DNA of 64,000 nucleotides from assembly GCA_002476605.1 (NCBI GenBank), contig DLLD01000016.1, forward strand, positions 99,225 to 163,224, read 5' to 3'. A model generated the notes under the pieces. It saw only the letters and a program-made list of their open reading frames with translations, ran no database searches and had not been told where the DNA came from. Shown in pieces: positions 16,827 through 36,175 of this stretch; the stretch's first letter is position 1; each line of letters opens with the position of its first letter. The stretch is from Christensenella sp. UBA7571 (lineage in GTDB: Bacteria; Bacillota; Clostridia; Christensenellales; CAG-917). Position numbers and translations under genes: made by a program.

Positions 16827-16842
16827 CGTGCTTTATAAGCGA

Positions 16843-18672
16843 TTACATTTTTGCGATGTACGCAGCAAGTTCGTTGAAGATGACGTCAAGTCCGTGTGCG
16901 CCAGCGTCGGGATAACCGATTGAACGCTCACCGACAGTGCCCGCTCTTCCGAGTGTCGCAACGTGCGTCTTGGTGGCTTCTGCGCCGTCGTGTGCCGCTT
17001 TTGCGCCGAGGTCGAGACCTTCTTGCAAAGTCTTGCCTTCTTCCGCTGCTTTGGTCAACGCCATTGCGCAAGGCTTCAATGCGTCGACGAGAGTCTTGTC
17101 GCCGATTTCCGCGCCTTTGCCGAAGGACTTCTTGCCGGTTTCGTAAACGCCACGGTTTGCTTCGGTGAAGAGAAGCGCTACGTCAGCAAGATTGACTTCT
17201 TTCTTGCCGAGCATTGCTTTGCCCGCGTACTTGAATGCAGAACCCCAAATAGGACCGCTTGCGCCACCGCAGTACTCTTTGATTATCTCACTGCAACTGA
17301 CGAGGAATTGACCGATATCGCCTTTCTTTCTCGTTGCCCAGTCTGCTTTGAGTTGTTTGAAGCCTTTTGCGATTGACATACCGAAGTCACCGTCGCCCAT
17401 TTTGTCCGCTTCGCAGAAGGGAACTTCGTTTTCGATAATGACGTCTGCCATTTTGTCTACGATTTGAACGAACGCCGCCGTGTTGATGGTCTCGCCGACT
17501 TGGGGAGTGCCTTCCACTTCGTATACTGCGTTGTCTTCGTTTTCATCGGTAGCGACTGCCTTTTTTGCCGTTGCTTTGTGTGCGGTCTCGACGGGAGCAT
17601 ATCCGAGTGCTCTGCCGATTGCTTGCACTGCTTCGAGTGCCGCTTCCGCTTGTTCGCTCATAGCCGCGCCCCAAGTGAGTGCGGGAGTGGATACGGGGTA
17701 GTCGATGAGGGCTTTGAGTTCGTTATCCACGCGGAGGACGGAGATAGACGCGCCCGCCATATCGATGGACGTCATAAAGTTGCCGACGATGGTGCGGTGG
17801 ATATTGATACCGTCCGCTTTCAACGCCTTGGTTACGGAATTGTTGAGGATATAGAGCTCTTGGAGCGGAGTTCCGCCAAAGCCGTTGATGAGGAGAACGA
17901 CGTCTTCGCCTTTTTTGAGAGCGAGGTCTTCTTCGAGGTCGGTGAGGATACGTCTTGACAAATCGTCGCAGAACGTGCCCGTCGAATAGTCGATTTTCTC
18001 ACGGAAACGACCGGGTTCACCGTGGATACCTACGCCGAATTCCATTTCGTCGTCACCGATTTCAAAAGTGGGGTGTCCCGCCGCCGGTACGGTACAACTC
18101 GTGAACGCAAAACCGAAGGAACGAACGTTTTCGATAACTTTGTTTGCAACAGCTTTGACTTCTTCGAGTTCTTTGCCTTGTTCCGCCGCCGCGCCCGCGC
18201 ATTTATGTACGAGGACAGTGCCCGCAACGCCTCTGCGACCTACGGTGTAGAGGGAGTCTTTGACTGCGATATCGTCGTTGACGTACACTGCGTCGACTTT
18301 GATGCCGTCGTCTTGTGCGTCTGCCATTGCGTTGTTGAAGTTCATACAGTCACCGGAGTAGTTCTTGATGATGAGAAGAACGCCTTTATCCGTTGCGCAT
18401 TTCTTGATTGCGTTGTAGACTTGAACTTGTGAGGGGGACGCAAAGACGTCACCGCAAACGGCTGCGTCAAGCATACCTTTGCCGACGAAGCCTGCGTGTG
18501 CGGGTTCGTGTCCGCTGCCGCCACCGGAAATCAAACTGACTTTTGCGTCGTTGATATCTTTCTTTTTGACAACCTTATACTTTTCGACGAATTCGAGTTC
18601 GGGATGAGCAGCAGCCAAGCCGTGACACATATCGTAAACGAAAGTTTCGGGCGTATTCATTATTTTCTTCAT
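16843..18672 (-). CDS. ATP-dependent dihydroxyacetone kinase (fused DhaK-DhaL domains)
   Basis: Dak1 hallmark SGGGSGHEPAHAGFVG. C-terminal Dak2 domain (DGDFGMS, GGASGPIWG). 609 aa. Confidence 0.9.
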   Translation of the reverse strand: MKKIMNTPETFVYDMCHGLAAAHPELEFVEKYKVVKKKDINDAKVSLISGGGSGHEPAHAGFVGKGMLDAAVCGDVFASPSQVQVYNAIKKCATDKGVLLIIKNYSGDCMNFNNAMADAQDDGIKVDAVYVNDDIAVKDSLYTVGRRGVAGTVLVHKCAGAAAEQGKELEEVKAVANKVIENVRSFGFAFTSCTVPAAGHPTFEIGDDEMEFGVGIHGEPGRFREKIDYSTGTFCDDLSRRILTDLEEDLALKKGEDVVLLINGFGGTPLQELYILNNSVTKALKADGINIHRTIVGNFMTSIDMAGASISVLRVDNELKALIDYPVSTPALTWGAAMSEQAEAALEAVQAIGRALGYAPVETAHKATAKKAVATDENEDNAVYEVEGTPQVGETINTAAFVQIVDKMADVIIENEVPFCEADKMGDGDFGMSIAKGFKQLKADWATRKKGDIGQFLVSCSEIIKEYCGGASGPIWGSAFKYAGKAMLGKKEVNLADVALLFTEANRGVYETGKKSFGKGAEIGDKTLVDALKPCAMALTKAAEEGKTLQEGLDLGAKAAHDGAEATKTHVATLGRAGTVGERSIGYPDAGAHGLDVIFNELAAYIAKM

Positions 18673-18777
18673 AATAATTCTCCTTAAAACCGCTTATATA
18701 ATCCTATTATAACCTTATATTACGCGGATTTTTTATAAGACACTCCCTTGCGCGGGCAAGGGAGTGTGCGTTTTATA

Positions 18778-19962
18778 TTAGTGGCAGCATTCGCAGTCGC
18801 AGCCGTATCTGAAATCGTGACCGAGTTTGTCCGCCGCTTTGATTGCCGCGATAACCATATCTTCGGTTACGGGGAAGGGCATATTGTGGATGCTCTCGTC
18901 GGGGATGCAAGTCTTTGCAGCGACGACCTTGTATTCTTCTTCGGTGAGCTCTTCTCTGATGACTTCACCCGTGCGCGGATTGGTCATAAGGTCGTGCAAG
19001 CAGACGGGGAGACCTACTTCGTCGCAGAAGTTGAGAACTTCGTAAAGTTCTTCTTCGGGGCTGTTTTCGAGAACGAGTTGGCAAATCGTACCGAATGCGA
19101 CTACTTCACCGTGCATACAGCAAGCGTGAATGTCGTGGATTGCGGTGAGACCGTCGTGAATTGCGTGTGCAGCTGCAAGACCGCCGGATTCAAAGCCGAG
19201 ACCGGAGAGAAGAATGTTGGTTTCAACGATCTTTTCAAATGCGGGAGTTACGACGTTGCAGTCGCAAGCGACTTTTGCTTTTGCGCCGTCGCTGATAAGG
19301 TTGCGATAGCAAAGCTCTGCAAGTGCGGCAGCAGTGTAAGTGCCGTAGCCGAGCAACGTGCCTTTCTTGCGGTCTGCTCCGCAAGGGAGACCTGCGTTGA
19401 CGTTGGATACGCTGTTGACGTTGGCTCTTGCCTCGAAGTATGTGGAGAGTGCGTCGCCCATACCGCTTACGAGGAAGCGAGAAGGTGCGTTTGCGATGAC
19501 GTTGAGGTCGATAAGAACTACGGACGGGCTTTGACGGAAGTATGCGTAATCGTCAAACTCGTGATCGTCCGTGTAAAGAACTGCGGAGTGAGAGGTCGGT
19601 GCGTCCGTTGCCGCGATAGTGGGGCAGATGATGAGCGGATTGCCAGCTGCGACGCATTTGGAAGTGTCGATTGCTTTACCGCCGCCGAGACCGATCGTGC
19701 AATTGCATTTGTTTGCTTTTGCGAACTCTTGAAGTGCTTTTACGACTGTGCGTGAGCATTCACCCTTGAAGATGTCGCAAGTGACGAATTCAACACCGTA
19801 TTTTGCTTGCGTTGCTTCGAGTTTCTCTTTGACGAGATTGAGTGCAAACGGGTCTGCGATAAGGAGTGCTTTCTTACCGAAGGTTTTGACAAAATAACCG
19901 AGGTTCAACAATTCGTTTTCGCCTTGTACATACTTTGTGGGACAAATAAATGCTTTTCTCAT
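18778..19962 (-). CDS. gldA: glycerol dehydrogenase (iron-containing ADH family) with a Cys-rich C-terminal tail
   Basis: MRKAFICPTKYVQGENEL start, GLGGGKAIDT, metal-binding His residues (AAAHAIHDGL, HGEVVAFG). Extra tail HDFRYGCDCECCH. Confidence 0.88.
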   Translation of the reverse strand: MRKAFICPTKYVQGENELLNLGYFVKTFGKKALLIADPFALNLVKEKLEATQAKYGVEFVTCDIFKGECSRTVVKALQEFAKANKCNCTIGLGGGKAIDTSKCVAAGNPLIICPTIAATDAPTSHSAVLYTDDHEFDDYAYFRQSPSVVLIDLNVIANAPSRFLVSGMGDALSTYFEARANVNSVSNVNAGLPCGADRKKGTLLGYGTYTAAALAELCYRNLISDGAKAKVACDCNVVTPAFEKIVETNILLSGLGFESGGLAAAHAIHDGLTAIHDIHACCMHGEVVAFGTICQLVLENSPEEELYEVLNFCDEVGLPVCLHDLMTNPRTGEVIREELTEEEYKVVAAKTCIPDESIHNMPFPVTEDMVIAAIKAADKLGHDFRYGCDCECCH

Positions 19963-20221
19963 AAATTTTCTCCTTTAATGAGTTATTTTTTTAAGATGTA
20001 AACATTATATATCCTTGCCGAAAATAATTCAATACCCAATTTGTTAAAAAACGTGTATTTTTGAAAAATTTTTGCAAAAAATCGCGATTTTGATGGTTTG
20101 CGGGCTCGATTTTCATAAAAATTTAATGTTTTTTGAGCAATTTATTCAAAAAAGTTGAATATTGAAAAAATCCGTATATAATAAAAATCAATAAAAAATC
20201 TTCATTTTCGAGGTGAATAAT

Positions 20222-20968
20222 ATGGACGTTGTATCATCAATCGAAAAACGCGTGCAATGGATACGCGATTTGCTTACAAAAACGGGCGCAAAGGGCATTA
20301 TCTACGGCAACAGCGGCGGAAAAGACTGCACCCTCGTCGGCGCACTTTGCAAACTTGCAACTCCCAACGTTTTGGGCGTCATTATGCCTTGCCAATCCTC
20401 GCAAAATTACGGCAGTGACCGCGACGACGCTTTGAGAGCGGGTGAGCATTTCGGTATCGAACAAATCGAGATAGATTTGAGCGCAACCAAACAAGCGCTT
20501 CTCGACGCTTTCGGTGAGCAACTCACCAACAACAACGCGGGTGAGAGCAATCTCAAAATGGCAAGCGTCAACATCAATCCGCGTCTTCGTATGACCACGC
20601 TTTACGCACTCGGTCAAGCAAGAGGCTATCTCGTGGCGGGCACGGGCAACCTTGACGAGGCAACGCTCGGCTACTTCACCAAGTGGGGTGACGGCGCACA
20701 CGATTTCAACCCGATTGCGGACTTGACAGTCGGTGAAATTTACGAGCATTTGAGATACCTCGGCGCACCCGAAACCATCATTACCAAAGCTCCGTCCGCT
20801 GGTCTTTATCAAGGTCAAACCGACGAGCAAGAGATGGGCATCAAATACTCCGACGTCGACAAATATCTCCGCGGTGAAGATATCCCCGCAGACGTGAGAG
20901 AGAAGATTGAGAGTGCGAAACGCAGAGCTGCGCATAAGTTAAAAATGCCAATTAAATTTGGTGAATAA
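20222..20968 (+). CDS. nadE: ammonia-dependent NAD+ synthetase
   Basis: PP-loop GNSGGKDCTLV, plus GTGNLDEATLGYFTKWGDG. ATG at 20222 after GAGGTG. Confidence 0.88.
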   Translation: MDVVSSIEKRVQWIRDLLTKTGAKGIIYGNSGGKDCTLVGALCKLATPNVLGVIMPCQSSQNYGSDRDDALRAGEHFGIEQIEIDLSATKQALLDAFGEQLTNNNAGESNLKMASVNINPRLRMTTLYALGQARGYLVAGTGNLDEATLGYFTKWGDGAHDFNPIADLTVGEIYEHLRYLGAPETIITKAPSAGLYQGQTDEQEMGIKYSDVDKYLRGEDIPADVREKIESAKRRAAHKLKMPIKFGE

Positions 20969-20975
20969 GCCACCC

Positions 20976-21419
20976 AAACGGCGAATAACTTTGTCAGCAC
21001 CCGTCCGATTTTTCGGACGGGTTTTTATATGGTGTAGTCGTAAAACCTTAAATGCAATAACCCCCTCTTTCCGGACACGCCGGCATATCCACTTCGGCGG
21101 TTTGCGCACCGCAATCCGCCTCGTTCGCTTTGGCTACAACACATTCATCGAATGTGTTGCTTAACGCGTCGCGCCCAGCCACTCGGTTAGGGACATTTCT
21201 CTACAAGATTATCCGCCGCTCGCGGGGGAGACATTTGGCACGCGCATAGATAGGGACATTTCTCTTATTATGCCACTTCGTCTGCGTGGCGGCTACGCAA
21301 CAAAATGCCACGCATTCTCGTACTAATCGTCGAGCTTGGCGCAAAGACGCTCGTCGCCTTGCGACTCGAACTCCGAATAAACACATTCCGTGTATAAGTA
21401 CGCCTTGAATAAGTTTGCG
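20976..21419 (+). repeat. structured intergenic repeat, copy 1 (long form, with leader box and terminator hairpin)
   Basis: AAACGGCGAATAACT box at 20976, terminator hairpin at 20999-21026, core from GTAGTCG at 21034. Near-identical blocks (CCCCCTCTTTCCGGACACGCCGGCAT, TCGCTCGCGGGGGAGACA, CTCGTCGCCTTGCGACTCGAA, CCGTGTATAAGT) recur at 24049, 24349 and 29294. Confidence 0.85.
20999..21026 (+). terminator. rho-independent terminator of nadE (also part of repeat copy 1)
   Basis: ACCCGTCCGA-TTTT-TCGGACGGGT followed by TTTTT. Confidence 0.65.
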
Positions 21420-21502
21420 TTAATTTGTCCGCCATTTTTTCCATATTTGCATAAACTTTTTCACTTTTGCTTGACTTCGCGTTTTTTAAGTGATAAAACC
21501 AT

Positions 21503-21522
21503 ACTAACGAACATTAGTTAGT
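21503..21522. promoter_or_regulatory. candidate TetR operator palindrome
   Basis: ACTAAC-N8-GTTAGT (also ACTAA-N6-TTAGT), immediately upstream of the TetR-family gene RBS. Confidence 0.35.
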
Positions 21523-21530
21523 GAGGACGT

Positions 21531-22169
21531 ATGAAACAAGAAGATACCAAAAATCTTATTATTCAAAAAGCACTGGATCTGTTTTCGGAGAGGGGATACG
21601 ACGCGGTGAGCGTTGATCAAATCGCAAAAGAGGTGGGCATCAAAGCGCCGTCCCTTTACAATCACTATCCGAGCAAGCAAGCCATATTCGACGCAATATT
21701 CGAGGACGTCGCAAAAAGTTACGAAGAGGATACGGATAAAATCGATATTCATGTGCAAAACGTAGCGCAAGACGTGCCGTCTTTCAACGGAATTTCGGTG
21801 GAAGATTTGATGGAAAAAGTGCACGGCGTTTTCTATTATTCTTTGCGCGACGAAAAGATGTGCAAGTTTAGAAAACTGATGACGATCGAGCAGTTTAGAT
21901 CGTCGAAAATCTCGAAGTTGTATTCACAAAGATACGTCGATAGACTGGTGGCGTATCACTCGGATATTTTCAAAAATCTCATTGCGACGGGGGAGCTTTT
22001 GGACGCTAATCCGGACACGCTTGCGCTTATGTACGTTGCGCCCGTGATAACGCTTATCGGCGTATGCGACCGCGAGCCCGAGAGGGAAGAGGAGTGCGTG
22101 CAAAAACTCGACGAACACGTCCGCTTGTTCTTTGACGTATTCAACGTCAAAAGAGGCAAAATAAAATGA
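21531..22169 (+). CDS. TetR/AcrR family transcriptional regulator
   Basis: N-terminal HTH IIQKALDLFSERGYDAVSVDQIAKEVGIKAPSLYNHYPSKQAIF. Confidence 0.85.
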   Translation: MKQEDTKNLIIQKALDLFSERGYDAVSVDQIAKEVGIKAPSLYNHYPSKQAIFDAIFEDVAKSYEEDTDKIDIHVQNVAQDVPSFNGISVEDLMEKVHGVFYYSLRDEKMCKFRKLMTIEQFRSSKISKLYSQRYVDRLVAYHSDIFKNLIATGELLDANPDTLALMYVAPVITLIGVCDREPEREEECVQKLDEHVRLFFDVFNVKRGKIK

Positions 22170-23461
22170 AAAAATTCAACAAATCGTCGTTGCAAATACT
22201 CGGCTTGACGGGCGTCGTAAGCTTTTTGTCGTACACGGTTGCGGTGATTTTTGCACCGCTTGCATACCCCGGTTACGATTGGCTTTCGCAAGCAGTGAGC
22301 GATTTGAGTGCGTCCAACGCACCGTCGCTCGCGCTATGGAATAGGCTCACCGCTTTTTACAACGTTTGCGAAGTGCTTTGCGCAACCGTCGCGTGCGTTG
22401 GCATACGCAATAAAAAGAGCAAACTTTTGCGCATAGGCGTATATCTTTTTGCGGTTATGGAATGGGTTTCCGCGGTGGGATATCGTATGTTTCCGCTCTC
22501 GGACAGCGGATATGCGGGCACGGCGCAAGACGTTATGCATATCGTTGTGACGGTTGCCGTCGTGCTGTTGTCCGTCGTCTCGCTGGTGCTTATCATAATC
22601 GCGGGGGCAAAGGACAAGAGATATTTGTCCTACTGTATATGCGCGTCCGTCGCGCTTGCAATGATGCTCGTAGGTGCGCTCGGTATGAAAATAGTGCCCG
22701 CAAAATACTTCGGTGTGGTGGAGCGTTTCAGCGTGTTTGCCGCAACGGGATTTAACTGTGCGTTGGGAATACATCTGTTTCTCGACAAAGAAAAACCTAT
22801 TCCGCATAATATTAATGAAATACAAGGTGAATATATGAAAAATGACAATCTAACGGTACGAAACGAACAAAAAGAAGAATATAGAGAAGTGGAAAATCTC
22901 ACGAGAGAGGCGTTCTGGAACGTTTATCGTCCGGGGTGTATGGAGCACTACGTTTTGCACTGCTATCGCAACGACCCCGCGTTCGTGCCCAAACTCGATT
23001 ACGTTATGGAACTTGACGGAAAACTTATCGGACAAGTGATTTACGTGCGCTCGGAAATAGACTGCGACGACGGAAGCAAACTTCCGATTATGACCTTTGG
23101 ACCTATTGGCATTTTGCCCGAATATCAACGCAAAGGCTACGGCAAAATTCTTCTCGATTACACTATGCAAAAGGCAAAAGAGGCGGGCGTCGGCGCGCTT
23201 GCAATCACGGGCAATATCGATTTTTACGGCAAATCGGGTTTCGTTCCCGCCAAGACCAAAGGCGTGCGCTATTTTGACGACCCCGAAGCGGATTATTTCT
23301 TGATCAAGGAACTCAAAGACGGTTTCTTGGACGGCGTGAGCGGTACTTATAAAGATCCCGAAGGATACTTCGTGTGTGAGAAGGACGCGGAAGGTTTTGA
23401 ACGTTTTGAAGCAACTTTTCCAAAGAAGGAAAAAAAGACGCTGTCAAGACAGTTGTTTTGA
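22166..23461 (+). CDS. DUF998-like polytopic membrane domain fused in frame to a GNAT N-acetyltransferase domain
   Basis: ATGA overlap with the TetR gene. The first ~210 aa form about 6 hydrophobic helices with a DUF998-like N-terminus (PGYDWLSQAVSDLSA). The C-terminal half has GNAT motif A (QRKGYGKILLDYTMQKA). An internal AAGGTGA-N5-ATG lies at ~22835. Confidence 0.6.
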   Translation: MKKFNKSSLQILGLTGVVSFLSYTVAVIFAPLAYPGYDWLSQAVSDLSASNAPSLALWNRLTAFYNVCEVLCATVACVGIRNKKSKLLRIGVYLFAVMEWVSAVGYRMFPLSDSGYAGTAQDVMHIVVTVAVVLLSVVSLVLIIIAGAKDKRYLSYCICASVALAMMLVGALGMKIVPAKYFGVVERFSVFAATGFNCALGIHLFLDKEKPIPHNINEIQGEYMKNDNLTVRNEQKEEYREVENLTREAFWNVYRPGCMEHYVLHCYRNDPAFVPKLDYVMELDGKLIGQVIYVRSEIDCDDGSKLPIMTFGPIGILPEYQRKGYGKILLDYTMQKAKEAGVGALAITGNIDFYGKSGFVPAKTKGVRYFDDPEADYFLIKELKDGFLDGVSGTYKDPEGYFVCEKDAEGFERFEATFPKKEKKTLSRQLF

Positions 23462-23474
23462 GCGGGGTACGGCT

Positions 23475-23732
23475 ATGATTGAATCAAGATGCGGGCTTCG
23501 ATGCAGTGAATGTGGTTTTAGAGAAGCAACGGGTTGCAAAGGATGCGTGAATATGGACAAACCTTTTTGGGCGGACAGTTGCCCCGTTAAGTCTTGTTGC
23601 GAAAAGAAAGGATTGCAAAATTGCGGAGAATGTGCGAATTTCGTTTGTTCTTTATTGCATACTTTTGCTTACGATATGGAGCAAAGCGATAACGGCGCAC
23701 GAATTGAGCAATGCAAAAAATGGTGTAAATAA
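23475..23732 (+). CDS. Cys-rich DUF3795-like protein
   Basis: 85 aa starting MIESRCGLRCSECGFREATGCKGC...CPVKSCCEKKGLQNCGECANF. Start taken at the internal ATG just after the upstream stop. Confidence 0.55.
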   Translation: MIESRCGLRCSECGFREATGCKGCVNMDKPFWADSCPVKSCCEKKGLQNCGECANFVCSLLHTFAYDMEQSDNGARIEQCKKWCK

Positions 23733-23733
23733 A

Positions 23734-24018
23734 ATGGCTTCGAGTAAAGAATTTTTACAGTTTATTTTGGAACAGTTGTCCGATTTGGACGATATTTCGT
23801 ATAGACCTATGATGGGTGAATATATCCTCTACTATCGCGGTAAAATCGTCGGTGGAATATACGACGACAGATTGCTCGTAAAGAAGACGAAATCCGCCTT
23901 GGAACTGATGCCTATCCCCGTTTACGCTCTTCCGTACGAGGGGGCAAAAGAAATGTTGCTCGTAGAAGAGGTTGACAGCAAAGAATTTCTTGCGAGACTG
24001 TTTGAGGGTATGGGCTAA
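23734..24018 (+). CDS. TfoX N-terminal domain-like protein
   Basis: 94 aa: MASSKEFLQFILEQLSDL...MMGEYILYYRGKIVGGIYDDRLLVK, typical of the TfoX_N family. Confidence 0.55.
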   Translation: MASSKEFLQFILEQLSDLDDISYRPMMGEYILYYRGKIVGGIYDDRLLVKKTKSALELMPIPVYALPYEGAKEMLLVEEVDSKEFLARLFEGMG

Positions 24019-24048
24019 TGCCGTTAATAAGTAGGCAAGGAATAGGGG

Positions 24049-24348
24049 ATAGTCGTAACTCTATTAATGCAATACCCCCTCTTTCCGGACACGCCGGCAT
24101 TTCTCACCCCACTCGGTTAGGGACATTTCCCTACAAAAGTGAGCATCGCTCGCGGGGGAGACAACGGCACTCGCATAGATAGGTATCGTCCCCTCGTTAT
24201 GCCACTCGTTCGCCAACGAAAAGAACAACACTCGTTGGTTCACTTGTGCTTTTCGTTAAGCTCGGCACTTATTCGCTCGTCGCCTTGCGACTCGAAGTTA
24301 CGTCTCCGAATAAGCACATACCGTGTATAAGTAGGCAACGAATAGGGA
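24049..24348 (+). repeat. structured intergenic repeat, copy 2 (short form)
   Basis: Same conserved blocks as copy 1 but lacks the ~88-nt insertion module. Preceded at 24022-24048 by a fragment matching the 3' end of the unit (GCCGTTAATAAGTAGGCAAGGAATAGG versus CCGTGTATAAGTAGGCAACGAATAGGG). Confidence 0.85.
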
Positions 24349-24745
24349 GTAGTCATAACTCCTCTTAAAAGAATTGCCCCCCCCCTCTTTCCGGACACGC
24401 CGGTATTTCCACTTCGGCGTTTGCGCACCGCAATCCGCCTCGTTCGCTTTGGCTACAACACATTCACCGAATGTGTTGCTTAACGCGTCGCGCCCGACCA
24501 CTCGTATATGGACATTTCTCTACAAAAGTAAACATCGCTCGCGGGGGAGACATTTGGCACGCGCATAGATAGGGGCATTTCTCTTATTATGCCACTGCAC
24601 TTTGTGCGCCAGCTTCGCAACAACACGGCGCAGTCGCTTGTACAACCGTCAAGCTCGGCACTTATCCGCTCGTCGCCTTGCGACTCGAAGTTACGTCTCC
24701 GAATAAGCACATACCGTGTATAAGTACGCCTTGAATAAGCGAATG
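24349..24745 (+). repeat. structured intergenic repeat, copy 3 (long form), head-to-tail with copy 2
   Basis: Contains the ~88-nt module with the CAACACATTC-loop-GAATGTGTTG hairpin, as in copy 1. Ends CCGTGTATAAGTACGCCTTGAATAAG, as in copy 1. Confidence 0.85.
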
Positions 24746-24898
24746 ATTTAATTCTTGCTTTTTTTATCAAAAGTCGATATTTTCCGTATTTTTAATCGAT
24801 AAAAATTTCTAAACAAAAATTAATGCTTGCGGCATCGCTTAATATATGTTAATATAGTTTTGGTTATCATTATATTCAACAAAAGGAGGGGCTGAATT

Positions 24899-25381
24899 AT
24901 GGCTCATTTAAGTGAGGCGGCTGTTGCTCAAATCAACGCGATTTGCGACAGATACACCGACGAAAAAACCCCACTTATGATGATTTTGAGCGATATTCAA
25001 AAGGAATACGGCTATATTCCTCTCGAAGTGCAAGAAATCGTCTCTGAAAGAACGGGGATCTCAGTTGCGGAAATTTACGGCGTCGTGACTTTCTACTCAT
25101 TCTTCTCGTTAGCACCCAAGGGAAAATACGTTATCGGCGTATGTCTCGGCACGGCTTGCTACGTCAAGGGCGCGCAACAAGTTATAGACAAGTTCTGCGA
25201 AGTGCTTGGCATTAAACCGGGTGAGACCACCAAAGACGGTTTGTTTACTATCGACGCGTTGCGTTGTATAGGTGCTTGCGGTATTGCTCCCGCCGTTTCC
25301 ATCAACGGACAAGTTTACCCCAAAGTCGCAGTCAACGCCATCCCCGGCATAGTTGACAATTATAGGTCGAGGGAGGAATGA
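24899..25381 (+). CDS. hydC: NuoE-like [2Fe-2S] subunit of electron-bifurcating [FeFe] hydrogenase
   Basis: Thioredoxin-like 2Fe-2S pattern (VCLGTACYVKG ... LRCIGACGIAP). AGGAGGGG RBS. First gene of the hydCBA operon. Confidence 0.85.
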   Translation: MAHLSEAAVAQINAICDRYTDEKTPLMMILSDIQKEYGYIPLEVQEIVSERTGISVAEIYGVVTFYSFFSLAPKGKYVIGVCLGTACYVKGAQQVIDKFCEVLGIKPGETTKDGLFTIDALRCIGACGIAPAVSINGQVYPKVAVNAIPGIVDNYRSREE

Positions 25382-27270
25382 TTGAGATGATTAGAACTTT
25401 TGAAGAACTTGAAAGAACTTGCAACGATTGCTCCAAATGTATGGACGCAAAATTTACGGGACACGACGGCAAGCGTCACATCGTGCTTTGCGGTGGTACG
25501 GGCTGTCTTTCTTCCCATTCGGACGAAATTAGAGAAGAGTTTGTAAAACTCGTCAACGAGAGAGGTTTGCAAGACAAAGTCACCGTCAACCAAGTGGGTT
25601 GCTTCGGCTTCTGCTCGCAAGGTCCTTTCGTCAAAATTTATCCCGAAGACACTCTTTATAGAATGGTCAAAATCGACGACGTAAGAGAAATCGTCGAAAA
25701 AGACCTCGAAAACGGTGAAGTGGTGGAAAGACTTCTTTACGTTGACCCAATCACCAAAGAAAAAGTCTCCAAACAAGACGATATCACTTTCTACAAAAAG
25801 CAAGTGCGTATCGCTTTGCACGGTTGCGGAAGCATCAACCCCGAAAAGATAGAAGAAGCGCTCGGTGCGGGCGCGTTCAAAGGTCTTGCACGCGCGCTTC
25901 AAATGGACAGACAAGAAGTCATCAACGAGATTTTGGCTTCGGGACTCAGAGGTCGCGGCGGCGGTGGTTTCCCCACGGGCAGAAAATGGCAATTTGCATA
26001 CGCTCAACCCGACGGTGACAAATACGTCGTCTGCAACGGTGACGAAGGCGATCCGGGCGCGTTTATGGACCGTTCCATACTCGAAGGCAATCCTCTTGCG
26101 GTTATCGAAGGTATGATGATTGCAGGTTACGCAATCGGGGCACAAAACGGTTATTTCTACGTTCGTGCGGAATATCCTATCGCTGTCAATCGTTTGCGCA
26201 TAGCAATCCGTCAAGCGGAAGAAATGGGCTTGCTCGGCGACAACATTCTCGGAACGAACTTCTCGTTTAGAGTACATATCCGCCTCGGCGCGGGCGCGTT
26301 CGTTTGCGGTGAAGAGACGGCTCTTCTCAACTCCATCGAAGGACAAAGAGGTATGCCTCGTCCTCGTCCGCCGTTCCCGGCAGTCAAGGGCTTGTGGCAA
26401 TCACCGACCATCGTCAACAATGTCGAAACGCTTGCTTGCGTGCCTTACATTATGAGAGAAGGCTTTGATCAATTCACCAAATTCGGCACTGAAAAATCCA
26501 AGGGCACGAAGGTCTTTGCACTCGGCGGAAAGGTCAACAACGTAGGTCTCGTGGAAGTGCCTATGGGTACTACTTTGCGTGAGCTCATTTACGACATCGG
26601 CGGCGGTATCCCCAACGGCAAGAAATTCAAAGCAATTCAAACGGGCGGACCTTCCGGCGGATGTCTCACGGCTGACGACCTCGACGCACTCATCGACTTT
26701 GACAACCTCGTTGCAAAAGGCTCGATGATGGGCTCGGGCGGTGCAATCGTTATGGACGAAGACAACTGTATGGTTGACGTTGCAAAGTTCTATATGGAAT
26801 TTATTTGCGACGAATCTTGCGGGAAATGCTCTCCTTGCCGTATCGGCACCAAGAGAATGCTCGAACTTCTCACAAAGATAACCAAAGGTCAAGCCACTAT
26901 GGAAGACCTTGACAAGCTTATCGACCTTGCAAACAACATAAAAACCAACTCTCTTTGCGCTTTGGGACAAACCGCTCCCAACCCCATACTTTCCACGCTT
27001 GCGCACTTCAAAGACGAATATATCGCGCACATCGTGGACAAAAAGTGTCCGGCGGCAGTGTGCAAGAGCCTTATGAACTACACGATTATTGCGGACAAGT
27101 GCGTAGGTTGCGGACTTTGCGAAAGAAATTGCCCCACCAACGCAATCCACAGCACCAACTATATCGCGCCCAATCACAAACTCCCGTCCAGAGAAATCGA
27201 TACGGAAAAGTGCATTAAGTGCGGTATGTGTATCTCTTCGTGCAGACTCAAAGCAATCGAGAAAAAGTAA
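25378..27270 (+). CDS. hydB: NuoF-like flavoprotein subunit (FMN/NAD(P)H binding, Fe-S clusters) of [FeFe] hydrogenase
   Basis: ATGA overlap with hydC. Has GLRGRGGGGFPTGRKW, NGDEGDPGAF, ESCGKCSPCR and two C-terminal ferredoxin CxxCxxCxxxCP motifs. Confidence 0.9.
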   Translation: MIEMIRTFEELERTCNDCSKCMDAKFTGHDGKRHIVLCGGTGCLSSHSDEIREEFVKLVNERGLQDKVTVNQVGCFGFCSQGPFVKIYPEDTLYRMVKIDDVREIVEKDLENGEVVERLLYVDPITKEKVSKQDDITFYKKQVRIALHGCGSINPEKIEEALGAGAFKGLARALQMDRQEVINEILASGLRGRGGGGFPTGRKWQFAYAQPDGDKYVVCNGDEGDPGAFMDRSILEGNPLAVIEGMMIAGYAIGAQNGYFYVRAEYPIAVNRLRIAIRQAEEMGLLGDNILGTNFSFRVHIRLGAGAFVCGEETALLNSIEGQRGMPRPRPPFPAVKGLWQSPTIVNNVETLACVPYIMREGFDQFTKFGTEKSKGTKVFALGGKVNNVGLVEVPMGTTLRELIYDIGGGIPNGKKFKAIQTGGPSGGCLTADDLDALIDFDNLVAKGSMMGSGGAIVMDEDNCMVDVAKFYMEFICDESCGKCSPCRIGTKRMLELLTKITKGQATMEDLDKLIDLANNIKTNSLCALGQTAPNPILSTLAHFKDEYIAHIVDKKCPAAVCKSLMNYTIIADKCVGCGLCERNCPTNAIHSTNYIAPNHKLPSREIDTEKCIKCGMCISSCRLKAIEKK

Positions 27271-27285
27271 AGAGAGGGAATTATT

Positions 27286-29052
27286 ATGGCTAAAATAAAT
27301 ATCAAAATAGAAGGTGTCCCTTATCAAGTCGAACAAGGCTTGACTATCCTTGAAGCGGCAAAGGCTTGCGGTTACGAAATTCCGTCCCTTTGCACGTACA
27401 ATCACGGTGAATGTTCAAGAGGTTCTTGCAGAGTGTGTCTCGTCGAGGCAACGGGTGCAAGAGGGCTCGTGGCGTCTTGCGTATATCCCGTCGCGGAGGG
27501 TATGGAAATCACCATTTCTTCCCCCAAAGCGGTGCAAGCAAGAAGATCTTCCGTGGAACTTTTGCTTTCCAACCACAATCGCAACTGCCAAGAGTGCGAC
27601 AAGAACGGCAAGTGTGAACTTTTGCACGTTGCGGTTCTCACCGGCGCAAGAGAAGGCGTTTATAGCGGTGAACAAACACCCGTAACCGTTGACAATCTCA
27701 CTCCGTCAATCAAGCGCGACACGAGCAAGTGCGTGCTTTGCGGAAGATGTATCGAAAGATGCAAAAACGCGCACGGTTTGTCCGTCCTCGGCTTTGAAAA
27801 GAGAGGTTTCAAGACTATCGTCGCACCGGCAGAGAACAGAAGTTTTGCCAATTCTCCGTGCATTTTGTGCGGTCAATGCGTAAGCGTTTGCCCCACGGGC
27901 GCACTTATGGAAGTGAGCGAAATCGACAAGGTCGACGCAGCGTTCAAGGCGGGCAAATACGTCGTGGTGCAAGCAGCACCTGCCGTAAGAGCGGCACTCG
28001 GTGAAGAGTTCGGTATGCCAATCGGCTCGCTCGTAACGGGCAAAATGGTTGCCGCGCTCCGTCGTCTCGGGTTCAAGAAAGTCTTCGACACCAATTTCAG
28101 CGCAGACCTCACCATTATGGAAGAGGCAACCGAGCTTCTCGGCAGAGTTAAAGACGGCGGTGTGTTGCCGATGATTACGTCTTGCTCCCCGGGCTGGATC
28201 AACTATGCGGAGTATTACTACGGAGATTTGCTAAATCACCTTTCTTCTTGCAAATCGCCTCACGAAATGTTCGGCGCAATCCTCAAAACGTATTATGCGG
28301 AACAAAACGGCATCAACCCCGAGGATATGTACGTCGTATCCGTTATGCCTTGCACCGCAAAGAAATTCGAGAAAGAGAGAAAGGAACTTTCCGTAAACGG
28401 TCTCAAAGACGTCGACGCGGTTCTCACTACGAGAGAGCTTGCAAAGATGATCAAGCGCGCGGGCATTATGTTCAACAGACTTCCCGATGAGAAATTTGAC
28501 GACGATATCGTCGGTGAATACACGGGCGCGGGCGTCATCTTCGGCGCAACGGGCGGTGTTATGGAAGCGGCCCTTCGTACGGCGGCGGCAGTGCTCGACG
28601 GCAAAGAACTCGAACACGTCGAACTCACCGAAGTCAGAGGCCTCGAAGGCATCAAAGAAGCGTCCTACAACCTCGGCGGTATGGAGGTCAAAGTTGCAGT
28701 TGCTCACGGTATGAAGAACGCCAAAGTGCTCCTCGACCAAATCAGAGAAGGCAAGAGCCCCTATCACTTTATCGAGATTATGGGGTGCCCCGGCGGTTGC
28801 GTCGCGGGTGGCGGACAACCTTACGTCCAACCTTGCTTCCTTCCCAACGAAGACGACGATATTCTCGACACCTTCCGTGCAAAGCGTGCAGCCGCACTTT
28901 ATCGTGAAGACGAGGGCAAACCCGTCCGTGTCTCCCACAAGAACTCCCAAGTCCAAAAACTCTACGACGAGTTCCTCGGAGAACCGAATAGCCATCTTGC
29001 GCACGAGTTGTTGCATACTCATTATACTGCTCGCACTCGCTTCCCGAAGTAA
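27286..29052 (+). CDS. hydA: [FeFe] hydrogenase catalytic subunit (H-cluster) with N-terminal 2Fe-2S/4Fe-4S domains
   Basis: H-cluster signatures TSCSPGW, MPCTAKKFE and EIMGCPGGCVAGGGQP. N-terminal Fer2 and 2x[4Fe-4S] motifs. Confidence 0.92.
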   Translation: MAKINIKIEGVPYQVEQGLTILEAAKACGYEIPSLCTYNHGECSRGSCRVCLVEATGARGLVASCVYPVAEGMEITISSPKAVQARRSSVELLLSNHNRNCQECDKNGKCELLHVAVLTGAREGVYSGEQTPVTVDNLTPSIKRDTSKCVLCGRCIERCKNAHGLSVLGFEKRGFKTIVAPAENRSFANSPCILCGQCVSVCPTGALMEVSEIDKVDAAFKAGKYVVVQAAPAVRAALGEEFGMPIGSLVTGKMVAALRRLGFKKVFDTNFSADLTIMEEATELLGRVKDGGVLPMITSCSPGWINYAEYYYGDLLNHLSSCKSPHEMFGAILKTYYAEQNGINPEDMYVVSVMPCTAKKFEKERKELSVNGLKDVDAVLTTRELAKMIKRAGIMFNRLPDEKFDDDIVGEYTGAGVIFGATGGVMEAALRTAAAVLDGKELEHVELTEVRGLEGIKEASYNLGGMEVKVAVAHGMKNAKVLLDQIREGKSPYHFIEIMGCPGGCVAGGGQPYVQPCFLPNEDDDILDTFRAKRAAALYREDEGKPVRVSHKNSQVQKLYDEFLGEPNSHLAHELLHTHYTARTRFPK

Positions 29053-29061
29053 GAAGGCACT

Positions 29062-29143
29062 AAACGGCGAATAACTGTGTCAACACCCATCCGCTACAAA
29101 ATCACGTACGCCTTGTACGTTGGGTTTTGTATCGGGTGGGTGT
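29062..29143 (+). terminator. AAACGGCGAATAACT box followed by a long terminator-like hairpin downstream of hydA
   Basis: Box at 29062-29076, matching those at 20976 and 29237. Imperfect 19-bp stem ACACCCATCCGCTACAAAA...TTTTGTATCGGGTGGGTGT (29083-29143) followed by TTT. Confidence 0.5.
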
Positions 29144-29236
29144 TTCCTTGTTCTTCATCCGTTTATTGCCTTCTTACGAGGGTATATAACTGTTTCCTTG
29201 CTCTTCATCTAAATATCGCAGTTTTACAAACGCGCT

Positions 29237-29595
29237 AAACGGCGAATAACTGCGTCAGAGCCGTCCGATAATCGGACGGCTCTTTTATATGTTTTGTCGT
29301 AACTCCTTAAATGCAATGCCCCCCTCTTTCCGGACACGCCGGCATTTCTCACCCCACTCGTATAGAGGCATTTCTCTACAAGATTGTTCGTCGCTCGCGG
29401 GGGAGACAACGGCACTCGCATAGATAGGGACATTTCCCTCATTATGCCACTGCGCTTTGTGCGCCAGCTACGCAACAACACGGCGCAGTCGCTTGTACTA
29501 ATCGTCAAGCTCGGCACTTATTCGCTCGTCGCCTTGCGACTCGAAACTCCGAATAGGCACATACCGTGTATAAGTGCGCTCCGAATAAGTATGCG
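29237..29595 (+). repeat. structured intergenic repeat, copy 4 (short form, with leader box and hairpin)
   Basis: Box AAACGGCGAATAACT at 29237. Hairpin GAGCCGTCCGA-TAA-TCGGACGGCTC shows compensatory changes relative to copy 1. Core runs from ~29294 to CCGTGTATAAGTGCGCTCCGAATAAG. Confidence 0.85.
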
Positions 29596-29650
29596 TTTGG
29601 ATAAGGCTACGCCTTCCGCAATTATTAATTAATAATTAATAATTATTAAT
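29596..29650 (+). repeat. AT-rich heptamer microsatellite module (TAATTAA/TAATTAT)
   Basis: TTTGGATAAGGCTACGCCTTCCGCAATTATTAATTAATAATTAATAATTATTAATT. An inverted homolog lies at 4141-4190. Confidence 0.7.
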
Positions 29651-29663
29651 TCTGTCGAACACT

Positions 29664-29696
29664 AAAAAAACACCGCACCGATTCGGTGCGGTGTTT
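29664..29696 (-). terminator. rho-independent terminator of the GH16 gene
   Basis: The minus strand reads AAACACCGCACCG-AAT-CGGTGCGGTGTTTTTTT. Confidence 0.7.
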
Positions 29697-29713
29697 GAGT
29701 GCCAAATTACTTA

Positions 29714-30700
29714 TTAAAACGGCTTTTGGGAGTAGACTGCCACCCAATCGACCAAGAAGTCGGTGGGGAAGTTGCTCTCGGGATTTTCCGTAATAGATTG
29801 CGTAAAGAGCGGGAATTGCTTGGTGAATGCGTCGGGGACGCGCTCGGTGACGTTTCCGCTTGCGTCTTCGATTTGTTTTTCCGCACCGTCAACTTCTACT
29901 GACAAGAACAAGAAGTCCTCAATCGGTGATACGAATCTCATATCCGTAATCGTTGCCACGAGAATTCTGTCGATATAGAACTTGTAGTACGTTTCCGTCC
30001 ATTCAAGCGCGTAGGTGTGCCAATCGTCGTACAAGGAAATTTCCTCTTCGCTTTCGAGCACGGTGGAATAGTTGACCATATTCACAGGGCCGTAACCCGT
30101 TTTGAAGTCGCTGTACATAAGGTAGTTGTCGCCGTAGTCGCCCACGTGGACGTTGTATTGATACATCCCGTTGACTTCTCCGTTGATGTAGAAGGGGGAT
30201 TCCATTATGTCGATTTCCGCACCGGACACTGTTACGTCGGAAGAATACATATTGGGTGCCATAAGCCAAAACGCCGACCAAAGTCCCGACGCTTTGGGGA
30301 GTTTGCAACGCGCTTCGTAATAGCCGTAACTGCTCATAAACTTGCCGTTGCTGTCGATTGCGCCCGTGTAGTAATACCCGTCTTCGCGCTTTTGCGTGCG
30401 GATAACGAGAGCGTTGTCTTGTGTGAATACTTGACGAGTGTCCCAATACGCGCCTCTACGTATATGCGGATTGCCTTGTGCGTCTGCGCCGTACACGTTC
30501 CAAAGCGTCGTGTCAATGGTGCTTGCGTCAAAATCGTCGTATTTTACGAGATATTGATTGTCCTTATCCGTAAACCCGCGCACTTCCGTAGGTTCACCGC
30601 CCGAGGGATTGTCGTCGCAAGCGACGAAGCAAAGTGCAATCGAGCAAACGAGCATAAGAATAGCAACTATATAAATGCCTTTTTTCATACTTTTCCTCAT
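29714..30700 (-). CDS. glycoside hydrolase family 16 beta-glucanase lipoprotein
   Basis: Lipobox LCFVAC. GH16 catalytic motif EIDIMES (ExDxxE). Confidence 0.85.
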   Translation of the reverse strand: MRKSMKKGIYIVAILMLVCSIALCFVACDDNPSGGEPTEVRGFTDKDNQYLVKYDDFDASTIDTTLWNVYGADAQGNPHIRRGAYWDTRQVFTQDNALVIRTQKREDGYYYTGAIDSNGKFMSSYGYYEARCKLPKASGLWSAFWLMAPNMYSSDVTVSGAEIDIMESPFYINGEVNGMYQYNVHVGDYGDNYLMYSDFKTGYGPVNMVNYSTVLESEEEISLYDDWHTYALEWTETYYKFYIDRILVATITDMRFVSPIEDFLFLSVEVDGAEKQIEDASGNVTERVPDAFTKQFPLFTQSITENPESNFPTDFLVDWVAVYSQKPF

Positions 30701-36169: not shown

Positions 36170-36175
36170 CACTTT

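Follow-up and report, generated by a model that had tools for sequence, protein, structure and literature searches.

A multi-copy, probably composite interspersed repeat with covarying hairpins turns over rapidly between strains of uncultured gut Clostridia

BIMEs are built of 35-bp REP units that are moved by RAYT transposases. The repeat described here resembles BIMEs and NIMEs (bacterial and neisserial interspersed mosaic elements) in being a mosaic of short palindromes and conserved linker motifs whose arrangement varies, in preferring gene 3′ ends and convergent spacers, and in being associated with recombination (PMC3049150, PMC3184786); unlike in BIMEs, its units follow a fixed order and are hairpins of different kinds, and no RAYT was seen. 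The BOX element of S. pneumoniae (Croucher et al. 2011, PMC3049150) is likewise an intergenic, multi-copy and modular Firmicute repeat with optional or repeated internal modules: we list as likenesses its hairpin-rich boxA-boxB(n)-boxC layout of 67-637 bp, its restriction to one lineage, the judgement that it is parasitic and its ability to alter neighbouring genes. BOX differs in having terminal inverted repeats and target-site duplications, ISSpn2 as its proposed mover and slow turnover (PMC3049150), whereas the present element, set apart by description and with no known sequence similarity to BOX, exceeds its genome in GC content, has no candidate transposase and turns over fast between strains that are 99% identical. 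Two repeats of the B. cereus group are also similar. The first, bcr5 (Group B, 310 bp; Kristoffersen et al. 2011, via PMC3184786), is, as far as the account in PMC3184786 goes, comparable in its length of about 300 bp, its lack of inverted repeats, its stable predicted secondary structure, its position at both ends of a gene cluster and its status as unclassified and “not MITE-like”; in that account it is tied to a resolvase and transposase gene cluster, whereas the blocks beside our element, compared by description, hold ordinary accessory or housekeeping genes. The second, bcr1 (about 155 bp), is a mobile-looking Firmicute repeat in which compensatory changes keep independent stem-loops, as here; terminal 5-bp direct repeats and transcription are shown for bcr1 alone of the two (PMC3184786). 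With the named families compared by description, the element is a previously undescribed repeat, one that adds to a known kind of bacterial repeat and is not a proven new RNA. It is probably a lineage-specific composite (mosaic) interspersed DNA repeat of the BOX/BIME/bcr5-like kind, non-coding, non-autonomous, and likely selfish and recombinogenic.

The element has four copies in the window (the whole stretch of 64,000 nucleotides that was analysed). The intervals given for them below are their cores, from a profile built on all four.

21035-21419, plus strand: copy 1, long form with the optional ~88-nt module (nhmmer E=1.5e-131, alignment)
21089-21179, plus strand: optional ~88-nt module of copy 1 (alignment), with a 10-bp hairpin at 21137-21159 (inverted repeats)
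21531-24018, plus strand: accessory block of TetR, DUF998-GNAT, DUF3795 and TfoX_N genes, flanked by copies 1 and 2 (Pfam, synteny)
24018-24048, plus strand: tail-to-head junction fragment of a further copy, abutting the TfoX_N gene stop codon (direct repeats, sequence)
24050-24348, plus strand: copy 2, short form, followed head-to-tail by copy 3 (nhmmer E=2.1e-90)
24350-24743, plus strand: copy 3, long form (nhmmer E=1.2e-134)
about 24409-24498, plus strand: optional ~88-nt module of copy 3, with its hairpin at 24456-24478
24899-29052, plus strand: HydABC-type [FeFe] hydrogenase operon, flanked by copies 2/3 and copy 4 (Pfam)
29294-29595, plus strand: copy 4, short form, flanked by the hydA and GH16 gene terminators, which are convergent (nhmmer E=1.3e-98)
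29596-29651, plus strand: 3′ accessory modules, a GGATAAGGCTACGCCTTCC hairpin and an AT-rich palindrome AATTATTAATTAATAATT..., which recur beside copies at other loci

The initial annotation had reported four co-oriented copies, a tail fragment and several conserved blocks, all of which were found where it had placed them; inverted-repeat analysis likewise confirmed the extra hairpin module that it had described in copies 1 and 3. Two 19-mers, CTCTTTCCGGACACGCCGG and CGTCGCCTTGCGACTCGAA, occur once per copy, or four times in all, against a chance expectation of 0.02-0.04, and CGTCGCCTTGCGACTCGAA has one further match elsewhere with 2 mismatches. The core of ~290 nt consists of two domains: a 5′ domain, in which CCCCCUC...GGGGGAG encloses two hairpins, CCGG and a weak TAGGGA one, and a 3′ domain with a GCAUAG..UUAUGC region, the hairpins P2 (conserved loop GCAACAACAC) and P4 (GTCGC-CUU-GCGAC) and a GAAUAAG-rich tail. 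Optional parts that can be inserted or exchanged are the ~88-nt hairpin module, a further module of ~165 nt whose ends are inverted, and alternative 5′ halves.

The variable hairpin of the initial annotation, here P2, and the second hairpin of the 3′ domain lie at the following positions, those of P2 exactly as first described:

21284-21313, plus strand: P2 of copy 1, GCGTGGC/GCCACGC, loop ..GCAACAAAAU (covariation)
24213-24238, 24605-24632 and 29460-29487, plus strand: P2 of copies 2, 3 and 4
21353-21365, plus strand: P4 of copy 1, GTCGC-CTT-GCGAC (covariation in 57 distinct copies)
24279-24291, 24672-24684 and 29528-29540, plus strand: P4 of copies 2, 3 and 4

In the alignments, three hairpins covary convincingly: P2, P4 and that of the optional module. 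P2, also predicted independently by RNAalifold, is 100% paired in 32 MAFFT-aligned sequences, with both sides changed at 4 of its 6 pairs, and 97.5% paired in 84 distinct sequences, with both sides changed at all six (6/6); its cells comprise 464 Watson-Crick pairs, 3 G.U and 2 A.C. In P4, the outer pair is G-C in 54 of the 57 distinct copies and A-T in 3 (zero mismatches), and the second pair is C-G in 31, T-A in 15 and G-C in 8. The module hairpin has compensatory variants in other genomes (CGACAC../..GTGTCG, CAACACGTTC/GAACGTGTTG and CAACTCGTCT/AGACGGGTTG). These three bear out the original description of a modular intergenic repeat of unknown class with truly covarying hairpins; the TAGGGA-CATT-TCYCTA hairpins that were part of that description persist as a weak feature and are poorly kept across the family.

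A clade of uncultured gut Clostridia carries the element in multiple copies. One 19-mer is common to at least 99 stretches, many at contig ends, in at least 11 species-representative genomes, and running the profile over about 100 retrieved stretches yielded 140 matches (48 near-full length), among them solitary 5′ modules, solitary 3′ halves, tandem copies, alternative modules and a nested 165-nt module. It is small, non-coding, polymorphic for insertion and dispersed in many copies; its sub-sequences occur in varying combinations, and it is intergenic and restricted to a lineage of at least 11 related genomes. It was not found in phage, plasmid and IMG/VR collections. Its orientation relative to genes is not fixed and shows no bias (neighbouring genes were analysed from crude ORF calls), and orthologous spacers of different species can carry it in opposite orientations (L013 vs L043; L031 vs L061).

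Turnover between strains is fast: at one site the element can be present, absent, reversed or truncated. The strains compared are 99.0-99.9% identical across the 4.15-kb hydrogenase operon. In the nadE-hyd spacer, the element is forward in contigs L102-L104, reversed in L101 and L107, absent from L106 and L108 and reduced to its tail in L105 and L109; in the hydA-GH16 spacer, it is forward in the window, reversed in L102, L104, L106 and L107 and absent from L105 and L108. Whole gene blocks are affected too. By synteny, the TetR block is absent from nine related contigs. The hydrogenase operon and copy 3 are missing from contig L110, where a single hybrid of copies 2 and 4 is left: identity to the window is 99.8% up to copy 2 and 98.5% from copy 4 onward, and the crossover falls in a 39-nt identical stretch. 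The copies act as portable homology through which homologous recombination deletes whole gene blocks, and recombination between them presumably inserts such blocks as well. The comparison genomes are all metagenome assemblies, in which misassembly could mimic some rearrangements; the identical stretches between copies are about 40 nt, far below assembler k-mers, and most configurations recur in independent samples, whereas only L110 itself shows the operon deletion. Together, the turnover at the same spacers and the hybrid copy uphold that part of the initial reading which saw mobile or recombining DNA.

A mosaic DNA repeat could account for this behaviour as follows. The element may persist as selfish DNA in spacers just 3′ of intrinsic terminators, and it would spread mainly via recombination or gene conversion among dispersed copies and neighbouring repeat modules; an enzyme acting in trans on folded single strands that it recognises may also take part. 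The hairpins could be kept as such a recognised folded single strand, or by a palindrome-correcting DNA process (template switching) that restores complementarity. Three of the four copies do lie just downstream of predicted intrinsic terminators, copies 1 and 4 immediately so; the GH16 gene terminator is about 70 nt past copy 4, and the promoter-like sites of the tetR and hyd genes are downstream of copies 1 and 3.

An alternative, unlikely in our judgement, is that the element is a multi-copy structured non-coding RNA gene of about 300-400 nt on the plus strand, whose conserved loops and junctions are trans-acting or protein-binding and whose paralogues happen to recombine. The three covarying hairpins with the conserved GCAACAACAC and CUU loops fit such a gene, as does a diverged alternative 5′ half that retains the CCCCC...hairpin...GGGGG layout. 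Folding energies are partly favourable: against shuffles, z for the long form is -2.9 on the plus and -0.3 on the other strand, but the short form reaches only -1.3 and -1.2 on the two strands, the consensus fold over the whole length is weak (-15 kcal/mol), and H1 and P1 are frequently unpaired across the family, short of the covariation expected of conserved structure. The strand itself had been assigned by the initial annotation from G.U pairs, an argument that holds for the four copies of the window and fails family-wide. A functional RNA should show G.U far in excess of A.C, which is not seen: P1 does have 139 G.U to 62 A.C, but one constant column supplies 61 of the 139, P2 has 3 to 2, and the informative pair 8-49 has 22 G.U vs 17 non-pairs, the latter read from the alignment as A.C. 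The stems are almost wholly Watson-Crick, and single-step intermediates are equally common on both strands. Because wobble pairs show no strand asymmetry, the case for a plus-strand RNA fails, and two further results oppose it: no promoter-like site was found on the plus strand inside any of the four copies, and three of them follow terminators. No conserved promoter or terminator belonging to the element itself was found. The Rfam search proposed with the initial annotation was run on 20900-29700; it gave no match at gathering thresholds and chance-level matches only up to E 10 (the best sub-threshold ones scoring 18.8-24.9 bits vs gathering scores of 40-75), so that the element matches no Rfam family. 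An RNA gene is also hard to reconcile with both orientations at one locus, with copies lost in near-identical strains and with the many truncated or mosaic ones.

The terminators beside the copies belong to a second repeat, which the initial annotation had taken in part for the element's own “leader” hairpin; the hairpins concerned are the intrinsic terminators of nadE and hydA.

20976-21034, plus strand: “leader” of copy 1, left half of a palindromic terminator module distinct from the element (terminator scan, module analysis)
20999-21022, plus strand: intrinsic terminator of nadE, within that “leader” (terminator scan)
29050-29179, plus strand: complete palindromic terminator module directly after hydA, one long hairpin of -70.4 kcal/mol
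29237-29293, plus strand: “leader” of copy 4, the left half of a terminator module, with a hairpin followed by a T tract
29257-29283, plus strand: that hairpin, the hydA-side terminator
29696-29668, minus strand: convergent terminator of the GH16 gene

In these modules, the outer stem is locus-specific, measures 17-23 bp and usually includes the upstream gene's stop codon, and its right arm lies past the terminator T tract; in the hydA module, the stop codon of hydA lies within the outer arms (29050-29068 and 29161-29179). SPRITE of S. pneumoniae (PMC3049150) is similarly an interspersed repeat resembling an over-long intrinsic terminator, unlike which the module has this outer stem; we found no published description of a stem containing a stop codon in this way. 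It is conceivable, if quite unlikely, that the element and the stop-codon-anchored modules come from one DNA-level process, or that the element is a mobile structured RNA or ssDNA of a new class. If one process did produce both, mobilisation or “palindrome-writing” would take place without terminal inverted repeats, target duplications or a neighbouring transposase, and the writing process would copy gene ends in inverted orientation and maintain perfect complementarity of arbitrary stems.

In none of the four copies is head joined to tail by a terminal inverted repeat, and the head (..ATAGAGTG.TCGTAACTCC) and tail (..CCGTGTATAAGT..GAATAAGT) are not complementary; both carry a short conserved direct motif, GAATA(A/G)(A/G)GT. 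Filled and “empty” sites of 99%-identical strains show no clean target-site duplication: neighbouring modules are replaced and the junctions are imprecise. Neither Y1, TnpB, IscB or any other transposase nor a cognate IS with matching ends was found across the 64-kb window or within about 100 stretches of 8 kb that flank copies, and the sole recombinase in the window is a large serine recombinase of an unrelated island (46049-47737). With neither terminal inverted repeats nor a clean target-site duplication nor a transposase found there, the element gives no positive evidence of transposition. The MITE label of the initial annotation is not sustained in the strict sense, also because the copies are GC-richer than the genome (50.5-53% vs 45.4% for the window) instead of AT-rich. 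It seems very doubtful that the element is moved as single-stranded DNA by an enzyme that recognises hairpins and has its gene elsewhere in the genome, for example a Y1/HUH enzyme (IS200/IS605- or REP/RAYT-like). Such movement would agree with the ends, since IS200/IS605 also lacks terminal inverted repeats and target duplications, and with conserved hairpins, purely Watson-Crick covariation and rapid gain and loss in both orientations, but it is opposed by the absence of such enzymes from the window and the flanking stretches, by module replacement at imprecise junctions, by the absence of matches to the HEARO or omega-RNA families of Rfam and by the lack of orientation bias.

Integron attC sites measure 57-141 nt. 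That the copies are site-specific recombination sites bounding gene cassettes (attC-like or shufflon-like) is highly improbable: co-oriented copies do flank two gene blocks of the window, each missing in some strains, and conserved structure with variable stem sequence is reminiscent of attC, but at 300-400 nt the element is longer, either orientation is seen among its copies, some of which are tandem or fragmentary, no integrase of the integron type was found, and the L110 crossover falls in plain homology, with other junctions lying elsewhere. Decay from a family of protein-coding genes is hardly credible as the origin of the copies, despite long plus-strand open frames in many of them: as the initial annotation held, no reading frame is conserved, copy lengths covering every value modulo 3 instead of being multiples of 3 and the open frame differing between copies over the same block, the translations are of low complexity, and the scarcity of stop codons on the plus strand simply follows from its richness in C (30% C).

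The four co-oriented copies were seen again on reading 20500-30200, by repeat search and by alignment, as were the tail fragment and the conserved blocks listed for them in the initial annotation. Each of two 19-mers taken from the blocks is found once in every copy, where chance would give 0.02-0.04 matches, and alignment and inverted-repeat search bear out the extra ~88-nt module with a perfect 10-bp hairpin in copies 1 and 3 (the long form; copies 2 and 4 are the short form). A profile made from the four copies delimits the core elements, and Pfam identifies the genes around them.

Core elements, terminator modules and neighbouring genes in the window
20213-20968, nadE, upstream neighbour of copy 1
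20960-21034, left-half terminator module
21035-21419, plus strand, core element, copy 1
21531-24018, TetR, DUF998-GNAT, DUF3795 and TfoX_N genes, between copy 1 and the tail fragment
24018-24048, tail fragment, after the TfoX_N gene and followed by copies 2 and 3
24050-24348, plus strand, core element, copy 2
24350-24743, plus strand, core element, copy 3
24899-29052, HydABC-type [FeFe] hydrogenase (hyd) operon, after copy 3
29050-29179, complete terminator module, after hydA, followed by copy 4
29237-29293, left-half terminator module
29294-29595, plus strand, core element, copy 4
29714-30700, GH16 gene, convergent, beyond copy 4

The hairpins at 20999-21022 and 29257-29283 ("leader hairpins") score as intrinsic terminators of nadE and hydA, respectively, so that copies 1 and 4 lie directly downstream of an intrinsic terminator; a third terminator (29696-29668), which ends the GH16 gene, lies about 70 nt past copy 4. 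Promoter-like sequences of tetR and of the hyd operon are located downstream of copies 1 and 3, respectively, and no plus-strand promoter-like site was found inside any of the four window copies. Because the TfoX_N gene has no terminator after it, read-through could reach only copy 2 and copy 3 behind it. The initial annotation could not match the element to an RNA family, and this holds: over the element region Rfam gave no match at gathering thresholds and chance-level matches only at E up to 10, the only matches in the entire window being a lysine riboswitch and a tRNA, both outside that region.

The family extends well beyond this locus. One 19-mer from the 5′ block matched at least 99 stretches, and, aside from a few chance matches in unrelated phyla, its carriers are uncultured gut Clostridia, represented by genomes of at least 11 species: among them are Christensenella sp. 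UBA7588 and UBA767, UMGS1366, Firmicutes bacterium CAG:475, HGM11462, two Hadza genomes, and three bins, one labelled Butyrivibrio crossotus and two Bacteroides. UBA7588 is Christensenellaceae per NCBI. Among the matches listed, many lie less than 100 nt from a contig end, as expected since the repeat breaks assemblies. BLAST against phage and plasmid collections gave no match to the element, and a scan of IMG/VR with two motifs gave chance matches only, with an empty profile search of those loci.

A profile search of the matched stretches (at least 99) returned 140 hits, and these reveal a modular make-up. Near-full copies number 48 (33 of 274-307 nt and 15 of 331-429 nt); the remaining hits are solitary 5′ modules, solitary 3′ halves (from near GGCAC.CGCATAG), copies in tandem and copies that carry other modules. 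An alternative 5′ half was also seen, with the CCCCC...hairpin...GGGGG layout unchanged. The head of the element (GAATAGAGTG..TCGTAACTCC) and its tail end (..GAATAAGT / GAATGAGTG) have a short direct motif in common, which is shared at the junction of tandem copies. Inside some copies, between the variable hairpin P2 and the CAAGCTCGGC block, sits a ~165-nt module whose ends are complementary (CACAAGGCTT...AAGCCTTGTG), found in the L059 copy at 5106-5278 and present in L078, L019, L021, L044, L048, L072, L091 and L107 (L-numbers denote retrieved comparison contigs or stretches); it resembles a small inverted-repeat element that has entered a larger repeat.

Homologous contigs from independent metagenomes, recovered by exact-protein look-ups, bear on how such copies come and go. 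The 4.15-kb hyd operon is 99.0-99.9% identical among L101-L109 and ~94.4% identical to the window, and the two spacers on either side of it vary from strain to strain.

State of the element in two orthologous spacers
nadE-hyd spacer, element forward: L102-L104
nadE-hyd spacer, element reversed: L101; L107 (truncated)
nadE-hyd spacer, element absent: L106, L108
nadE-hyd spacer, tail only: L105, L109
hydA-GH16 spacer, element forward: window, L100
hydA-GH16 spacer, element reversed: L102, L104; L106 and L107 (partial, cut by the contig end)
hydA-GH16 spacer, element absent: L105, L108
hydA-GH16 spacer, head remnant of ~20 nt: L101

Forward and reversed nadE-hyd copies (L102 and L101) are 95% identical over 263 nt and differ in their adjoining modules, and a test for in-place inversion in this pair found no flanking inverted repeats. 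Opposite orientations are also found in orthologous spacers of different species (L013 vs L043; L031 vs L061), and in L103, L105 and L107 different genes adjoin the same spacers. In L078, from Christensenella sp. UBA7588, a run of N (1117-1265) masks most of a copy at the locus orthologous to the nadE-hyd spacer. The TetR block is confined to the window lineage (L100/L111, L110) and is missing from nine contigs, L059 and L078 among them. The identity of L110 to the window is 99.8% over 16531-24344 and 98.5% from 29296 on; this contig has neither copy 3 nor any of the hydrogenase operon, and carries one hybrid copy that joins the 5′ part and P2 stem of copy 2 to the tail of copy 4, with the crossover within 39 nt (AAGCTCGGCACTTATTCGCTCGTCGCCTTGCGACTCGAA) common to both. 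Such a configuration is the mark left by homologous recombination between direct repeats. Misassembly is an unlikely source of the apparent rearrangements, since the assemblers used k-mers (119-141) much longer than the stretches in which copies are identical and most configurations recur in independent samples; the L110 deletion is known from one contig only. In its turnover at the two spacers and its hybrid copy the element behaves like mobile or recombining DNA, and what is demonstrated is recombination or gene conversion between scattered copies and modules, in contrast to transposition.

The element is also rich in hairpins, three of which covary. Across 32 distinct sequences, aligned with plain MAFFT, every P2 cell is paired and four of the six pairs have changed on both sides, and RNAalifold predicted the helix independently. 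A covariance model of the 105-nt region found 89 matches (84 distinct), with P2 97.5% paired and all six pairs changed on both sides in an alignment that is fitted to the structure and therefore biased towards it; the covariation score is 0.40, against 0.16 ± 0.01 for shuffles and at most 0.10 for slid partners. There are a few unrelated stem types (GCGTGGC, GCCAACGA, TGCGCC, TGTGAC), with single-pair compensations inside each type or some of them (CCAACG/CGTTGG, CAAACG/CGTTTG, CCAATG/CATTGG, CCGACA/TGTCGG, CCGATA/TATCGG, CGGACG/CGTCCG, TGTGAT/ATCACA), while the loop retains GCAACAACAC or GAACAACAC. A hairpin with a changing stem and a kept loop, first noticed among the window copies, is a property of the family. 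Among 57 distinct copies, the second pair of P4 (GTCGC-CUU-GCGAC) is C-G in 31, U-A in 15 and G-C in 8, and its outer pair is G-C in 54 and A-U in 3, with no mismatch. The 10-bp hairpin of the optional module shows compensations as well (CGACAC../..GUGUCG, CAACACGUUC/GAACGUGUUG, CAACUCGUCU/AGACGGGUUG).

The two TAGGGA-CAUU-UCYCUA hairpins described for each unit fare less well family-wide. The first is marginal or unpaired in many copies; the second (P1) barely pairs in many copies or has variants in another register (ACAAGU/ACUUGU, loop AUCGUUC). P1 is 84% paired under a hand-defined helix, which RNAalifold did not reproduce, preferring GGCA/UGCC. Folding of the whole element is modest: single-sequence folding of the short form against shuffles gives z of -1.3 and -1.2 on the two strands, the long form gives -2.9 on the plus strand vs -0.3 on the other, and RNAalifold over the full MAFFT alignment is weak (-15 kcal/mol).

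Given three covarying hairpins, conserved loops and a long form that is more stable on the plus strand, the element may be a functional RNA. Covariation of this kind proves, from the alignments, that complementarity is maintained; it does not identify plus-strand RNA as the selected molecule. Such an RNA lacks a promoter of its own, and its copies are unstable between strains. The wobble signature is missing too: the initial annotation had argued for plus-strand RNA from G.U pairs, and family-wide that argument fails. P2 cells comprise 464 Watson-Crick pairs, 3 G.U and 2 A.C, and P4 has zero wobble. In P1 there are 139 G.U vs 62 A.C, one constant column supplying 61 of the G.U; at the informative pair 8-49, G.U (22) and non-pairs (17) are about equal, the latter appearing in the alignment as A.C, which would be the wobble of the opposite strand. 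Nor is orientation fixed. By crude ORF calls, the upstream gene is on the same strand in 57 cases and the opposite in 43, and the downstream gene in 27 and 45, so a fixed orientation relative to genes was rejected; by the same calls, gene 3′ ends facing the element are in mild excess (102 vs 70 flanks). The plus-strand RNA reading is not supported.

A second kind of module makes a non-RNA explanation available. The leader hairpin had been counted as part of the element; the leader of copies 1 and 4 is instead the left half of a separate module of ~125-135 nt, which is predicted to fold as a single long hairpin (-50 to -73 kcal/mol). Its outer stem of 17-23 bp has a sequence unique to each locus. 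Within lies a conserved, asymmetric internal loop (left CGAATAAC..TG.GTCA, right TTYCTTGYTCTTCAT; boxes also given as CGAATAAC / CTTGTTCTTCAT), then a GC-rich middle stem followed by a T tract, which constitutes an intrinsic terminator, with an apex of two types. The module also occurs in L101-L108, L003, L004, L010, L020, L036, L039, L040, L043, L046, L056, L068 and L073. The 14 nt that follow the core are reverse-complementary to 14 nt lying ~90 nt upstream in 38 of 64 occurrences, and the left arm includes the stop codon of an upstream ORF (at least 80 codons) in 21 of 27 distinct modules. Since the right outer arm lies past the T tract, a terminated transcript cannot form the outer stem; the outer palindrome looks as if the gene end had been copied in inverted form at the level of DNA. 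In these genomes, then, perfect palindromes with arbitrary sequences are made or kept at the DNA level, so the wobble-free covariation of P2 and P4 could have a similar, non-RNA origin. It also urges caution elsewhere: perfect covariation in repeats need not imply a functional RNA, because the same genomes hold palindromes unable to form in terminated transcripts. The stop-codon-anchored palindromic terminator module, of which no description was found in the literature, is a stranger observation than the element itself, and if gene ends really are copied in inverted form to give such modules, the process would be a new mechanism of mutation or mobility. The NadE C-terminus reads ...FGE* in most strains; next to a different terminator module it reads ...FGENV* or ...FGENA* (L101, L059 vs L102, window), and the right arm of the module abutting nadE is complementary to the lineage-specific coding end.

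Known classes of mobile DNA fit less well. The label of MITE-like element does not stand: an inverted-repeat search of the four window copies found no terminal inverted repeats, filled and empty sites differ through replacement of neighbouring modules and show no clean target-site duplication, and GC is 50.5-53% in the element vs 45.4% in the window. No transposase gene is encoded in the 64-kb window, whose sole recombinase is part of an unrelated island, and no transposase recurs beside the copies in about 100 flanking 8-kb stretches, where the sole multi-locus protein cluster is an ABC transporter and the rest are spurious ORFs. Membership of integrons or of IS200/IS605 failed in the tests made. 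A protein-coding gene family was rejected, in agreement with the earlier statement that no reading frame is conserved, as copy lengths take all values modulo 3 and the frame open over the same DNA block varies by copy. Many copies have long plus-strand open frames because that strand is C-rich (C 30%, G 22%) and poor in stop codons; one block reads PPLSGHAGIS, PSFRTRRH or PLFPDTPV, and the resulting peptides have the look of translated non-coding DNA.

The evidence best supports a new family of composite (mosaic) interspersed repeats. By their descriptions rather than their sequences (PMC3049150, PMC3184786), the composite repeats BOX, BIME and NIME work in a like manner, as does bcr5 of the B. 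cereus group, a 310-bp repeat without inverted repeats that is predicted to fold stably and that borders a gene cluster. Literature on the host taxa or on such repeats yielded no description of the element, which is real, non-coding and, as far as can be told, undescribed. As composite repeats, the copies would be selfish, non-autonomous DNA residing in intergenic spacers, kept hairpin-rich. They turn over fast and act as portable homology that brings about cassette-like gain and loss of gene blocks. The bifurcating [FeFe] hydrogenase operon and the TetR-GNAT block behave as cassettes bounded by repeats, and structural variation between strains is demonstrably driven by the element. Its main interest lies in this part in operon-scale variation, in rapid strain-level turnover and in unusually clean hairpin covariation, within a dense collection of lineage-specific intergenic repeats that abundant uncultured gut Clostridia of humans and animals carry. 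By breaking assemblies (many copies lie at contig ends), it also affects the quality of metagenome-assembled genomes.

Other repeats and features were seen along the way. At 29597-29651 of the window lie two more recurrent intergenic modules, one a GGATAAGGCTACGCCTTCC hairpin, the other an AT-rich palindrome of variable length (AATTATTAATTAATAATT...); they are present in the hydA-GH16 spacer of every strain and adjoin copies at unrelated loci in L013, L042, L043, L074, L082 and L095. The 3′ flanks of copies in L045, L046, L007 and L053 carry yet other repeat modules, namely arrays of short hairpins each followed by ATATCA (e.g., CCAAACAGCGTTTGGATATCATCGTGCAACGCACGATATCATCACGC...) and GGGTGTGGGTGTCCCACCC hairpins. 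The lysine riboswitch (35398-35565, minus strand, 82.8 bits) is upstream of an amino-acid ABC transporter operon (33656-35305, 32787-33659). A probable integrated island of ~11.8 kb (36093-47958) lies at the tRNA gene 36093-36166, the tRNA 3′ end being repeated at 36149-36188 and 47919-47958 (att-like, 85% identical). It encodes a large serine recombinase (46049-47737), an Eco57I-type methylase (42654-44252) and, between the repeats, several large ORFs (36521-38491, 39755-42649) for which Pfam gave no match. A 67-nt direct repeat within this putative island (38814-38880 and 45431-45497, 84% identical) ends in a GCGCACGTGCGCGCGCG-like sequence.
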